From Dirinaria sp. TL-2023a (Eukaryota): a stretch of 36,240 nucleotides of DNA. A program made the position numbers and the translations under genes. The notes beneath the pieces were generated by a model that searched no databases, had not been told where the DNA came from, and saw nothing but the letters and a program-made list of their open reading frames with translations. Shown piece after piece: positions 28,949 through 34,211 of this stretch (the stretch's first letter is position 1; each line of letters starts with the position of its first letter). The DNA lies in the NCBI GenBank assembly GCA_051941275.1, contig JAVEBF010000063.1, positions 1 to 36,240 on the forward strand. Reading direction: 5' to 3'.

Positions 28949-30665
28949 TTAGCCTCGTCGTTTACTGGACGGAAGCTTATCTCGTCTTTTCACTTTCACA
29001 GGCAAGCCTTTGGCCATCGGGAGCGTCAGGCTGTTTTGGCTAAGTCTCTCCTTCAATATGGTATGGCCGCCGAGCTTCTCATCGTGGATTTCAACGAACT
29101 CGTAATCCCATGTCAAGGCGGCAATGACATATACTGCGAGCAGCTCTGCCAGCTTCTTACCAATGCATGCCCTAGCGCCGCCGTTGAAAGCCGGAAACTC
29201 GGAGGCAGACTTGGTAATAGGCTGCTCTGAGCTGGTATTGAGCCATCTTTCGGGGCGAAAATCGTTGGCATCTGGGCCCCATATATGCTGGGATCGCCCC
29301 ATTGCCCAAGGTACCCATATAACGACAGCGCCTTTGGGCAAGGACGTTCCGTCTGGGAAGACTGTTTCCATCGTGCACTCCTTAAGCTCGACAGGAACGG
29401 GTGGGTACAGGCGTACAGACTCGTTGAACGTCGCTGTGATGTATGGCAGTGATCCCGGCTGTACGGCGGAATAGGAAAGCGTAGGGCCGCAACCCTCCAC
29501 AAACCTCTGCTGAAGTTCCGACAATATTTTCTGAACGGTTTGGGGGTTCCGCAGGAGAAGGTATAACGTCCAAGTCAGCGCTTGAGCTGTTGTATCCCTG
29601 CCTGCGGAGAGGTAATTCATAGCAGCATCGGCAACAACTTCGTGATCTTCCAAATGGTCCAACAAAGAGTCAATAAGGATACACTTCGCCGAGCCCTGTC
29701 CTTCATTCGTCGGCTTTTCTAAAAGGGGGTCCCTCGCCTTGCGTCGCCTTACAGCGCCTGAGACTATCCCTCTGCCAAATTGCTTCACTTCCATCACTGC
29801 TTTCCGAAGGCGCTTGCCAAACAGCAGCTCCTTAAGCTTCCAAAATGGGTTTTGAAAGCGTTCTCCAATAGCTCCGGAAGCGAAACCAAAAGCCTGGGAG
29901 AATGGCAATGAATCTGGAATATCCATCTGTGAAACGGGCGTCAGCCTTCAACGCAGTGTATACCTAGTGTATGGGCTCACATCGTAAGCCACATTACCCA
30001 TTAAACGTGTTGTCAAACTGAGGAATGTCTCCTGCATGTCTATGGTTCTATTGCTTAGCGAAGCCGAATCCAGAATCTCCATGGTATCCTCAAGTAATGA
30101 TGGCAGAACATCATCAATGAAGGACTTCAACTGAGAATTACTAAAAAAGCGGAGTCCGGCTTTTCTTTGGATTCTCCAAAGATCGCCATCGGCATTAATG
30201 ATGCCATTACCTACGATCTCGGGGTCATTCCTATTCCAATTTGGGTCGCTGTCTGTGGTGTGCACCTACCGAAGAGATCCCAGGATCGGAGTTTGAAGAA
30301 ATCTCCTTTGATGAAAACATCAGTGTTCTTGAAAACATGCTCCACATTCTGGGGATCGTTGATCACAATGCCCGGAGGCAGAGAGGGCACAGAAATCTCA
30401 AAGGTGCTGAGTCCGACTTTGTGCTCACATTCGGTGAACCAATCGAGGAGCTTGTGCCTTGGCTGTAAGAACCATATGCCGTTACCGGCTAATGGGAGTG
30501 TTCCTGGTGGACGTCTGCAACGGATTTAGCGAGGATAAGCTTGAGGAGCGCACACAAGCCTGAAGCTCACGGTAGTCTCTTGCCATGACGTCGGATACTA
30601 GAGCTCTGGCCTTGGAGAAACCACGCAGCTATGAGCAAAACTAGACCTAGGACAAGCAGGTACAT
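28949..30665 (-). CDS. Cytochrome P450 resembling fatty-acid omega-hydroxylase-type enzymes (CYP52 clan / plant CYP86-94-like motifs). Exons 30665-30571, 30514-30270, 30210-29981, 29926-28949
   Basis: N-terminal TM anchor and PPG.LP, DLFGNGIINADGDLWRIQRK, I-helix AGRDTTA, ESVRLYPPVP, FRPERW, and heme motif FNGGARACIG. Confidence 0.95.
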
Positions 30666-31437
30666 GGCCTATGTCAAAGAGAAAACTGTATATATTCTAC
30701 ACAAGATTGAGAAAAAGAGAAAGCCATAGGTATACAAAATGAGCCCATAAACCATGACCTATGGTTGACCGAAGGATGATGAGAGCGTTCGATAGTTGAT
30801 CTCATCCAAATTCTGGGTACGTATCATTGAATCTCAGTGGTTCACACATGTAGGGTCCAGGTAGGGTCAGCAGAGTGTGCACCCACGAGATGACAACTCT
30901 TCACTACTTTACTCTGTATTGGCTTGGAAGTTGTTTATTTTATGCACTATGCCTGATTTTTCACTGGATACATAGCCTGAACGGAGTTGTACACCATGAA
31001 ACCGACAAGGACTCGAACCCATATTGTCAACGGCTCCGCCGCACAGTCAGTTTCGGAGGATATACGTAAGCCGGCGGTTTGATGGGGGGGCCAGATACCT
31101 TGCTCTACCACTCCAGCATCATGCGGGATGACGACTCTTCATCCATACCTACCTTAATGTACCTTACCTGTTGAATGCACCTAAGCACAAGATCGCTGTC
31201 TTAATCTCATCGATATCGTCTACTTCACTCAACCAATCATCCTTGCCCCCGTAGTGGTACCTGCCGATGCCTTGCCCTTGGCTCTTGTCGACTATGTTAT
31301 CATCATTATTTGCGACTCGCTAATTAGCCGTAATCCTGCTGCAACCTTTTCCTTCATTATGGTCCACTTTCTAGACTTGATATTGTTACAGTCGTTACAG
31401 ATGCGAGATCACCTGCTTTGAGATACTCTGAAAGGAC

Positions 31438-32803
31438 ATGTCTCCTTCTGCACTACCGAATGGTACTGCCAACGGCCATCTTACCAGCGACCTTAACCTG
31501 TCCATACTTGGGTTGGGCGTTGAATATCCACCGTACCGTGTCGGGCCCGACGCCCTCCAAACAATCGCCGAGCGTTATTATCCAGAGTCTCCAGCGTATG
31601 TGGAACCTTCCAGTACGACCTCATTTTCCTTTACCTCCAGCCTTCTTACTTATCGCTTGCCTTGATTGTCCTTGCTGAAAAGGCCTGTAGTCTGAGCAAA
31701 GTCCTTTCCATCAACCGCTATACAGGCATCGAGACCCGTGCCGCCATTGGCGAAGTCGACCATCCAATCGTTAATCAGCCGAAGGCACCCAGTATCACTG
31801 AGCTCAACAAGTGCTTTCGCGAAGAAGGCGTGCGACTTTCCGTCAATGCATGCAAGCAAGCCATCGCAGAATGGGGAGGACAGGTAGATGACATCACGCA
31901 CGTAGTATCAACTACCTGCACCAATTCTGCCAATCCCGGCTATGATCATTATGTGACGAAGCAGTTAGGGGTCAAGAGCAGCGCTGAGAAAGTTCTCTTG
32001 CACGGTATCGGGTGCTCCGGTGGTCTGGCTGCATTAAGGACTGCCGCGAACATGGCCTTGGGCTCATCTTTCCGCAGAAAGCCTGCGCGGATCCTGGTTT
32101 TGGCTTGCGAGATTTCAACAGTGTTGATACGGTCAGAGTTGGACTCAATAGATAAAGACCAAACAGTACGGATTGGAGCGTGTCTTTTCAGCGATTGCGC
32201 TTCAGCCGCGGTCTTGAGTAACGGTGTTGCTCTCCCAGATGAGCTCGCAGACCCGGTCTACGAAGTCCTGGGCTGGAAGCATGAAATCTTGGCAGATACA
32301 GAGACCGATTTGGGCTTTGACATTGACCCTTTAGGTACAAGCGCGTTCTATCATCTGGACGAAGCAGAACCAGACTAATTATGATTCCAGGGTGGAAAGT
32401 TGTACTGACTCCTCGAGTACCTGGACTAGCTACTGCCGCAGTAGCACCGGCCTTCAAAGATCTAGTCGAGTCACTGCCTGAACTCACTGAAGGCCAAGAA
32501 ACCCCGAATGCTCTTGATTTCGACTGGGCACTGCATCCTGGTGGCTCGACCATCATTACTGGAATTGAAAAAGCTATGGGCCTAAGCCCCGAACATCTGC
32601 GTGCGACTTACGAAATATACATGAATTACGGCAACAGCTCTTCCGCGACCATAATGAGTGTCATGAACAAACTCCGCGAGATGGGCGACGGCAAAGAAAA
32701 CGTGATAGCGTGTGCCTTTGGACCGGGCATATCGTTAGAAATGATGGTGTTAAAGAGGCGGAATAAGCTCTTGAACGGCCTTCCGCAAGAGGATGTGGAT
32801 TGA
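31438..32803 (+). CDS. Type III polyketide synthase (chalcone synthase superfamily, similar to Neurospora ORAS / Aspergillus CsyA type). Exons 31438-31595, 31691-32334, 32391-32803
   Basis: Catalytic triad Cys (GIGCSGG), His (WALHPGG) and Asn (YGNSSSAT). Also LFSDCASA, AFGPG and YTGIETR. Confidence 0.96.
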
Positions 32804-33136
32804 AGATTTGTCTGCATATTCTGCGATGGACATTGTCGCATATCTGGCGTTATAAATCCCCCCAATCCCCCCCTCCGGCCCGGCTCCGGCCTAAGGTACG
32901 TTTTAAGATCCCGCCCAAGGGTACGACCAATATGGCCCTACTTAGATATCATTCGATTTAGCAACTGGCAAACTTGCGAGCATAATAGAGAGCTTTTCGA
33001 CATATACCCCTCAGCGGTATTAGCTCTGGTATTTTTTCCATTTGCTCAAGCAGACGGCTTCTTATGTACAATTTCTTCTAGAATCAAGTATCTACACCCA
33101 ACACATGTTGGATCACATAGGGACAGCCAATATACC

Positions 33137-34211
33137 TCAGTCATCTTTCACCCCTACGAAATATATCAGCTGCCCCGTAGGCCACGTATGCATGCTTCGT
33201 CCACGCTCGAACCTCCAACCACGCATCTCCTTCTCCATCCTGCCCTTTCTCATCAACGCCATAATCTCATCCCCACTTCTCGTGCGCACGGCGCTCACCA
33301 AACCATCCAAAACCACTACGAGCGGTACTATGGGAATCACATACGTCCAGAATAAATGCATCCAGTCGCCCCAGAACCAGTACCAGCTACCGATCCATAA
33401 GCTCGGGCCAAGCGCCAGCATCGTAATCAGCGCCTCGAATGTCCGCTCCTGCAGCTCGACGATACAGAAACCGGACGAGGTGGCGAGCGTGTTGCGCAGA
33501 ATCTGGATCGCGGCGTCGTTATCGAAGTGATGGAAGGCGAGCGAGAAGAGGCGGAATATCTTTTTCCGCTGCTCGTCCGACGACAGCCCATCGACTTTCG
33601 CGAGGAGGTTCAGAGGTGCATCGCCTGCGTCGACGCTTTCCCGCACGAATTTCACGTGGTCGCTTCGTTTCGCCGCGCGTTCCCAGGCTTCTAAGTGCGG
33701 ATGAATGTCTGTGAGAACGAAGTCAACGGCTTCTTCTTCGATGTCTCTTTCTTCTTTGCCGGCGCCATTCAGTTGCACCAGTTCGATGTCATTGCCAGTG
33801 GTAGTGAGTTTATTATTCCTGCTCTCCCCCAAAACGGCATTTTCTCCTCTCCCCTTCGTCTTGAGATTGATCTCATGTTCGAGGATGGTGGTTGGCCCGC
33901 CGGCGCCGGAGCAGAAATCAACGAACGTGTAGGATGTGAGGGAAGAGCCGAGCAGGGAGCGGAGAGTGCATGCGAAACTCGATGCCGCGGACTGGGACTG
34001 CAGTAAGGGAACTTTGATCTTCCATAGAATGGTCAGGGAGGCTTGGACTTTTTCCCGGAGGATGGCTGGGAACCTGGAGGTTTCCCTTTTTTTTTAGTTC
34101 TTTTGGATCTTGGACGTGGTGGAGGAGGGTCTGAGAGAGGGAAGAGGATTACCAGGATTGGTCGGCGATCTCATAGAAATGGAAGCGAGGAAATGGAAGG
34201 GGAAAGCGCAT
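33137..34211 (-). CDS. Class I SAM-dependent methyltransferase-like protein. Exons 34211-34153, 34073-33137
   Basis: Reconstructed MRFPLPFPRFHFYEIADQSW|FPAILREKVQ. Motif I FVDFCSGAGGP, motif II VLTDIHP, SVDA and FSLAFHHF, plus a hydrophobic C-terminal hairpin. The ORF track captures only the last 231 aa. Confidence 0.8.

Follow-up and report, generated by a model that had tools for sequence, protein, structure and literature searches.

Pathways of fungal type III polyketide synthases (PKSs) remain nearly uncharacterised past the synthase itself, and the type III PKSs of most lichen genomes have no product assigned to them. Here we ask whether a type III PKS gene of Dirinaria sp. (Caliciales, Lecanoromycetes) forms one biosynthetic unit with the two genes beside it, a cytochrome P450 (P450) gene and a third gene that we call gene 3. 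The three lie at positions 28949-34211 of the window, by which we mean the whole 36,240-base contig, part of a metagenome-assembled genome. An earlier reading of this DNA (the original prediction) proposed that they make an oxidised and methylated phenolic lipid, and the three intron-bearing genes that we recovered occupy exactly the positions assigned to them there. The P450 is transcribed divergently from the PKS across a spacer that had been put at about 770 bp and measures 772 bp, and gene 3 lies 3' of the PKS in convergent orientation, as had also been read (Table 1). We argue that the trio is probably one conserved, expressed biosynthetic cassette and that it probably builds one modified phenolic lipid, because the genes stay together in many distantly related fungi. 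The outcome is a compact unit of three defined genes whose models have been corrected and are ready for direct expression.

Conservation of the trio in fungal genomes

Linkage in named genomes was assessed by comparing locus tags across three protein searches, with the 120 best matches taken from each. The P450 and the PKS were no more than two tags apart in all 12 lichen species that both lists name, the PKS and gene 3 no more than five tags apart in 11 of 15 species, and gene 3 and the P450 no more than six tags apart in 10 of 12. Gene 3 stood directly beside the PKS in Dirinaria, Lecanora helva, Psora crenata, Caeruleum heppii and Sclerophora amabilis, and the species in which the two are linked include one of another class (S. 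amabilis, Coniocybomycetes) and one of the Ostropomycetidae (Lignoscripta). The tags of the Teloschistales imply the order PKS-P450-x-gene 3.

For metagenomes we scanned contigs with the gene-3 alignment, which gave 80 loci falling into 57 groups (at least 95% nucleotide identity). Whatever the flank length, a P450 was found in 30 of these groups and a PKS in 18. When at least 3 kb was available on both sides (23 groups) the P450 was present in 19, the PKS in 15, both in 14 and neither in 3, and when at least 5 kb was available on both sides (18 groups) the corresponding figures were 15, 13, 12 and 2. The housekeeping neighbours of the window served as a control in the same 23 groups, and they were recovered in 6 (M48), 3 (UNK26), 2 (TPR), 1 (RMND1) and 1 (ILV3). 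As far fewer of the groups retain these neighbours, the trio is kept as a unit beyond general synteny. The P450 and gene 3 are its tightest pair, and the PKS is usually, not always, beside them. We also considered that the linkage might reflect chance proximity to a common P450, and rejected this, every linked P450 being 42-72% identical to that of the window.

The linkage reaches down to 32-40% gene-3 identity and takes several forms. Besides the order of the window (gene 3>/<PKS/P450>) we found <P450/PKS>/gene 3>, a divergent <P450/gene 3> without a PKS between, and <PKS...<P450/gene 3>; the divergent P450/gene 3 pairs are 0.4-1.1 kb apart, and the P450-PKS spacers equivalent to that of the window measure 634-1179 bp in 13 related loci. 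Conserved linkage in relatives, on which the original prediction had staked the idea of a cluster, is thus widespread, being kept across species and metagenome loci in at least three gene orders, in support of that idea. The 772-bp spacer is the presumed shared promoter region. A promoter k-mer search covering 14 P450-PKS and 16 P450-gene 3 spacers gave, for the former, a top 7-mer that occurs in 11 of the 14 and is absent from the spacer of the window; unmatched first exons confounded this search, and we claim no motif.

The synthase and the P450

The PKS matches Pfam Chal_sti_synt_N (E = 6e-26) and Chal_sti_synt_C (E = 3e-21), both above the curated cut-offs, and aligns over residues 11-392 with the solved ORAS of Neurospora crassa (PDB 3e1h, E = 4.7e-149; 3euo, E = 1.4e-147). 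The motifs GIGCSGG, HPGG and GNSSS align identically between the two proteins and the catalytic triad (C161, H316, N349) is invariant in 28 orthologues, which bears out the view that the PKS is intact and ORAS-type. It shares family and fold with ORAS and with the clade-1 enzymes BPKS, CtPKS and SmPKS. In the passages of a published survey that treat them (PMC6985275), clade-1 fungal type III PKSs prefer long starter units, make resorcinols and often stand beside P450 genes. Given its closeness to ORAS and to the characterised clade-1 enzymes, the window PKS would be expected to take a long-chain acyl-CoA starter and to release a resorcylic acid or a resorcinol. The two loci differ, in that these passages report no obvious cluster around ORAS whereas the window PKS lies between a P450 and gene 3. 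A complex prediction for the PKS and gene 3 gave a score of 0.00 ("no answer") and is evidence neither way.

The P450 (Pfam p450, E = 1e-39) carries the heme-binding sequence FNGGARACIG, of the FxxGxRxCxG type, whose cysteine is invariant in 15 orthologues, as well as a hydrophobic N-terminal membrane anchor. Both motifs picked out in the original prediction were recovered: the I-helix motif AGRDTT is present in the sequence, and LFG.GI..ADG..W..QRK is present too, but only once intron 2 is removed. With a profile of the 15 orthologues the best solved relatives were CYP97A/C (E = 7.5e-38), with CYP4B1 at 6.9e-21, and an atlas search with the Stereocaulon orthologue P0352 returned at rank 3 a cluster whose automatic name is 'putative cytochrome P450 alkane hydroxylase'. 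The two motifs may resemble those of CYP52 and CYP86; in the PDB searches no solved chain was close enough to show CYP52/86-type membership. As leads, these findings make the fatty-acid omega-hydroxylase of the original prediction a candidate role.

Fold and family of gene 3

Gene 3 has no match in Pfam at E ≤ 10, the Pfam threshold is reached by none of the 43 members of its family (the best result being Methyltransf_23 in one member, E = 0.01), and the comparison with PDB sequences gave spurious repeat matches only. An AlphaFold (AF2) model built from 43 homologues (predicted local distance difference test 85, predicted template modelling score 0.82) nevertheless predicts a Rossmann-like class I S-adenosylmethionine (SAM) methyltransferase fold. 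Foldseek matched this model to Coq5, CyaF, CysG, PsoF and NovO with E values from 3e-6 downward, and VIA-align superposed 175-210 of its residues on RedM, SibL, TnmH, DnrK/RdmB, CouO/NovO and COMT (Z 14-15, root-mean-square deviation 3.2-3.6). Residues D72, G76, G79, D142, D168-A169 and F200-H201-H202 are invariant in the 43 fungal members. So are the motifs, namely VDFCSGAGGP, which is like motif I, the acidic LTD that follows the second strand, D168-A169 and AFHHF, and they are kept in six distant members as well; by analogy they would serve to bind SAM. The claim that the third gene is SAM-methyltransferase-like therefore stands at the level of fold and motif, while no curated family model matches it. 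Between strands 5 and 6 there is a hydrophobic helical insert (about residues 232-285, with the Kyte-Doolittle peak at residues 257-285) that probably dips into the membrane.

The family is large. A profile search of 1.84 billion representatives (50% clustering) returned 2213 of them at E ≤ 1e-3. A scan of genome contigs with the fungal gene-3 alignment (A1) found no relative, and one with the distant members (A4) found bacterial loci, at least 574 in number, that belong to Gemmatimonadota, Acidobacteriota, Verrucomicrobiota, Myxococcota and further phyla. We kept the best 80 of these at least 574 loci, and none of the 80 has a PKS or a P450 within 6 kb, so that the family does not need a PKS; nor is any neighbour family conserved among the 80, the commonest being ABC transporters (15), with ketoacyl synthases and GT2/lipid A acyltransferases at 6 each. 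Taken by themselves, the bacterial homologues thus make up a methyltransferase-fold family that is uncharacterised. They come from soil and marine phyla, are about 270 amino acids long, and share an N-terminus like 'E..DQ.WFP..LR', CSGGGGP and FHHF (loci L081-L160). Physcia stellaris and Heterodermia speciosa are the closest named relatives that carry gene 3, at 65-66% identity.

The gene-3 tree separates a bacterial-type from a fungal-type clade with 100/99 support, and two long library proteins fall inside the latter. One of them, P0436 (679 amino acids), contains a complete type III PKS and a complete gene-3-type domain, between which lies a linker of about 15 residues. The PKS part belongs to another clade, with some 40% identity to the PKSs of the fungal loci. 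In the other, P0407 (687 amino acids), the gene-3-type domain is joined to an aromatic-ring hydroxylase domain of the FAD_binding_3 family. None of the 80 fungal loci is close to either protein.

Transcription and splicing

The RNA evidence comes from four RNA sequencing runs of one lichen metatranscriptome sample, produced in one study and kept as Logan contigs. These are 92-99% similar to the window, that is, derived from a close relative, and carry no expression levels. They cover all three genes in the four runs, and their joints confirm five of the six modelled introns: P450 introns 1 and 3 (30514/30571 and 29926/29981), both PKS introns (31595/31691 and 32334/32391) and the gene 3 intron (34073/34153). 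P450 intron 2 has its sole support in the orthologue P0352, RNA cover being next to none over 30088-30271. Two donors of PKS intron 1 are represented in the RNA. The productive one at 31595 occurs in run X2, and one at 31612, in runs X1 and X3, adds 17 bases and brings a stop at PKS codon 60; it may represent regulated unproductive splicing or a peculiarity of the related strain.

Within the divergent spacer, contigs on the P450 side extend to about 30753 and those on the PKS side start at about 31202-31351, with next to no cover over 30824-31191, although contigs cannot define transcript ends. On the other side of the PKS, one contig (X3 record 16) spans 32680-34071, from the 3' end of the PKS into gene 3, and further contigs have their end or their start at about 33032-33037, where the convergent transcripts of the two genes abut or overlap. 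What this RNA shows is that the trio is transcribed and spliced in a close relative, not that it is co-regulated, since it consists of contigs from one sample.

Relation to published clusters

A P450 beside a type III PKS is the commonest arrangement published and is frequent in clade 1, as set out in the consulted passages of the survey of Navarro-Munoz & Collemare 2020 (PMC6985275). The surmise that similar linkage might already have been noted is accordingly right for this pair; it does not extend to gene 3, which has no Pfam domain and is for that reason invisible to Pfam-based surveys. The survey lists Pfam domains and itself states that genes without domains were missed. A 2025 study in Angew Chem of more than 1000 fungal enzymes names P450s, reductases and dehydrogenases as neighbours, and neither 'methyltransferase' nor 'lichen' occurs in its main text (PMC12559476). 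A genome comparison of Evernia and Pseudevernia notes one shared cluster that holds a P450 together with a chalcone synthase (PMC6337363). The passages on published fungal type III PKS and P450 core clusters thus describe the same pair without gene 3. The window cassette, unlike those clusters, adds gene 3, and it lacks transcription factor and transporter domains among the 40 longest of the 123 open reading frames (ORFs) of at least 90 amino acids on the contig, in agreement with the original prediction.

Our literature search for the gene-3 family or for the trio, the scope of which stopped short of supplements, found no description of either. The linkage of P450 and type III PKS is hence already published, and the methyltransferase-like partner appears to be unreported and to be the new part. 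It escapes domain-based cluster surveys. The cassette would be the first functional handle on an unannotated methyltransferase-fold family found in fungi and in many bacterial phyla. Conservation of the pathway across lichen orders and beyond would also bear on whether lichen fungi share a conserved secondary metabolism. According to the available text of a 2024 paper, in which 'type III' is absent, no ubiquitous cluster of lichen fungi had been reported before its squalene synthase cluster (PMC11457338).

A putative pathway and its alternatives

From what was observed, namely the identities of the enzymes, the fold of gene 3, the linkage in several orders and the transcription with splicing, we propose a pathway in which the substrates, the order of steps, the regiochemistry and the methyl transfer itself are conjectural. 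The ORAS-type PKS would act in the cytosol, converting a long-chain fatty acyl-CoA and malonyl-CoA into an alkylresorcylic acid or alkylresorcinol. The P450, anchored in the endoplasmic reticulum, would oxygenate this lipid or its alkyl chain. Gene 3 would then methylate the product, the simplest target being the hydroxyl or carboxyl that the P450 step creates or exposes. The junction of a PKS with a gene-3-type domain in P0436, and that of a gene-3-type domain with a hydroxylase in P0407, are independent associations.

Several observations weigh against the idea of a single cassette. Gene 3 and the PKS are on different contigs in 4 of the 15 named species (Pyrenodesmia, Kuettlingeria, Villophora and Circinaria), although the contigs are short in two of the four, and of the 23 informative metagenome loci 8 have no PKS within reach, 4 no P450 and 3 neither. 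In Physcia stellaris and Heterodermia speciosa gene 3 was found, but the 120 best matches listed include neither a PKS nor a P450 of these species; the Physciaceae may have lost both, or this may be an effect of such lists. Much of the linkage among lichens is synteny inherited within one class. The bacterial homologues of gene 3 are common and, as far as they were kept, stand away from any PKS or P450. Gene 3 fits no curated methyltransferase model, and neither its family nor this P450 family has a known product, substrate or activity. The RNA, from a single sample of a relative, testifies to presence instead of co-regulation. Finally, P0436 and P0407 may be merged gene models instead of true fusions, though even as merged models they imply same-strand adjacency in other lineages.

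A variant of our explanation differs from it in regiochemistry. Without oxidising the alkyl chain, the P450 would hydroxylate the resorcinol ring, and gene 3 would O-methylate a phenol, so that the lipid formed is a methoxy-hydroquinone or benzoquinone. Sorghum makes sorgoleone with the same trio of enzymes, encoded by genes that to our knowledge are not clustered. As described for this pathway (PMC5887931, PMC8048663), an alkylresorcinol synthase (ARS1/2) works there with an O-methyltransferase (OMT3) and a P450 (CYP71AM1) that dihydroxylates the ring, and srsABC of Streptomyces griseus, as its description in PMC6669644 goes, likewise combines a type III PKS, a methyltransferase and a hydroxylase on alkylresorcinols. 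That gene 3 finds its closest structural matches among aromatic natural-product O- and C-methyltransferases, that P0407 joins its domain to an aromatic hydroxylase, and that the tight pairing of P450 and gene 3 suits hydroxylation followed by methylation all agree with such a route. However, the sorghum enzymes are plant proteins of other subfamilies, SrsB is of the isoprenylcysteine-carboxyl-methyltransferase type and SrsC is a flavoprotein monooxygenase, whereas in the window the methyltransferase-like enzyme has a class I Rossmann fold and the oxygenase is a P450, of a family other than that of CYP71AM1; the window is not of the SrsB/SrsC type, and the resemblance is one of analogy, not homology. 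The nearest labelled relatives of the P450 moreover point, if only through an automatic name and the motifs presumed to be like those of CYP52/CYP86, to aliphatic hydroxylases, and P0407 is a possible merged model. We regard ring hydroxylation as a possibility to be entertained, if tentatively. Alternatively, gene 3 may be a passenger, that is, a membrane-lipid methyltransferase with a role of its own that stays near the P450 and PKS through microsynteny or a shared promoter. Its ancient and widespread family, the bacterial loci in which no neighbour family exceeds 15 of 80, and the 3 of 23 fungal loci where both partners are missing would fit this role. On the other hand, the linkage outlasts at least three rearrangements as well as the disappearance of every housekeeping neighbour, it persists at gene-3 identities as low as 32-40%, and the junction in P0436 is an independent one with a PKS of a different clade, all of which makes a passenger unlikely.

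In plants the sporopollenin module consists of CYP703/704, ACOS5, PKSA/B and TKPR, and needs an acyl-CoA synthetase and a tetraketide reductase. In it a P450 of the fatty-acid type and a type III PKS work together on long-chain acyl substrates, as those of the window may. It differs in that the window has a methyltransferase-fold gene and, among the 40 longest ORFs of the contig, no acyl-CoA synthetase or ligase and no reductase domain. Were the steps ordered as in that module, the P450 would hydroxylate fatty acids at the omega or an in-chain position, the PKS would extend the hydroxy-acyl-CoA, and the methylated product would be the precursor of a wall or spore-coat polymer. The automatic 'alkane hydroxylase' name and the presumed CYP52/CYP86-like motifs are in keeping with this order, the 5 loci of the 23 in which a P450-gene 3 pair stands with no PKS near it fit an action on common lipids, and the broad conservation among lichen fungi suggests a structural over a niche role. 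The missing synthetase and reductase tell against it, nothing in our results bears on polymerisation or spore-specific expression, and in the published in-vitro work on ORAS and BPKS plain acyl-CoAs were used (PMC6985275, PMC9920419). We think this order distinctly unlikely. Very improbable, in our judgement, is that gene 3 uses its fold for chemistry other than methyl transfer, as a hydroxylase or decarboxylase that depends on SAM, or as a pericyclase, in the manner of RdmB, TamK, LepI or PdxI; removal of the carboxyl group from the resorcylic acid would be one example. RdmB, TamK, the pericyclase entry 6inw and HpiI/PdxI do occur among the structural matches, and the family is too divergent for the Pfam methyltransferase models. 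Yet ordinary methyltransferases outnumber these exceptions among the matches, and from fungi to bacteria there is no variation at the motif-I-like, acidic post-beta2 and 'FHHF' positions, as would be expected of a working SAM site.

The cassette that we favour also admits a broader and more speculative reading, which we place on the doubtful side. The pair of P450 and gene 3, usually together with an ORAS-type PKS, would be an ancient module of filamentous ascomycetes for a structural phenolic lipid, methylated and oxygenated, and gene 3 would found a new family of membrane-associated lipid methyltransferases, invisible to Pfam and shared with many bacteria. Nearly all lichen-forming fungi may then have the pair, and the lipid may serve membranes, hydrophobic thallus surfaces or spore walls. 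If so, it would be the fungal counterpart of the cyst lipids of Azotobacter, the Srs lipids of Streptomyces or the sporopollenin precursors, and lichen fungi would have in the module their second biosynthetic cluster of wide conservation, next to the one reported in PMC11457338.

Gene models and surroundings

Spliced by script, the three gene models are open throughout (Table 1). The deposited proteins P0121 (PKS) and P0001 (gene 3) are letter-identical to them. The deposited P450 model P0241 (503 amino acids) was rejected: it retains intron sequence from two introns and has a wrong start inside the gene, an error that costs it the membrane anchor and the PPGT region. Against P0352 the 515-residue model has 334 identities and 45 gap columns and P0241 has 298 and 109, and it is on account of this better fit and of the RNA joints that we prefer the former.

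Table 1. Coordinates of the three genes and of the spacers between them in the window
Feature	Position	Strand	Description
Cytochrome P450 gene	28949..30665	-	4 exons, 515 amino acids; Pfam p450, RNA joints, orthologues
P450 exons	30665-30571, 30514-30270, 30210-29981, 29926-28952	-	ATG 30665; stop 28951-28949
P450/PKS divergent spacer	30666..31437		772 bp between start codons
Type III PKS gene, ORAS-like	31438..32803	+	3 exons, 404 amino acids; Pfam, PDB match, RNA joints
PKS exons	31438-31595, 31691-32334, 32391-32800	+	ATG 31438; stop 32801-32803
PKS/gene 3 convergent gap	32804..33136		333 bp between stop codons
Gene 3, predicted class I SAM-methyltransferase fold	33137..34211	-	2 exons, 331 amino acids; fold prediction, RNA joint
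Gene 3 exons	34211-34153, 34073-33140	-	ATG 34211; stop 33139-33137

The domain scan of the 40 longest ORFs across the contig placed a TPR/Sel1-like gene immediately upstream of the trio and an M48 peptidase immediately downstream. The other neighbours include PDS5, an aspartyl protease, an arginase, a lectin, SRP72, a kinase, a dihydroxy-acid dehydratase (ILV3), INO80F, RMND1/DUF155 and a U3-associated protein. The flanks had been described as mitochondrial housekeeping genes; housekeeping they are, and the word mitochondrial applies only through the known roles of the M48 and DUF155 families.

Two further genes that do not occur in the window recur at the other fungal loci. An alpha/beta hydrolase (Abhydrolase_1, E = 4e-34) adjoins the P450 in 9 of the 80 loci, mostly those with a divergent P450/gene 3 pair (for example L052:6405-7271 and L058:6037-6960, both on the minus strand). 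A small hydrophobic protein of about 130-160 amino acids (alignment A2), which has no Pfam match, stands beside the PKS in 13 of the 80, among them L038:9029-9502, L034:4296-4763, L067:9077-9523 and L080:7254-7652 on the minus strand and L074:4987-5460 and L049:8632-9159 on the plus strand, and it may be a fourth member of the cluster in other lineages.

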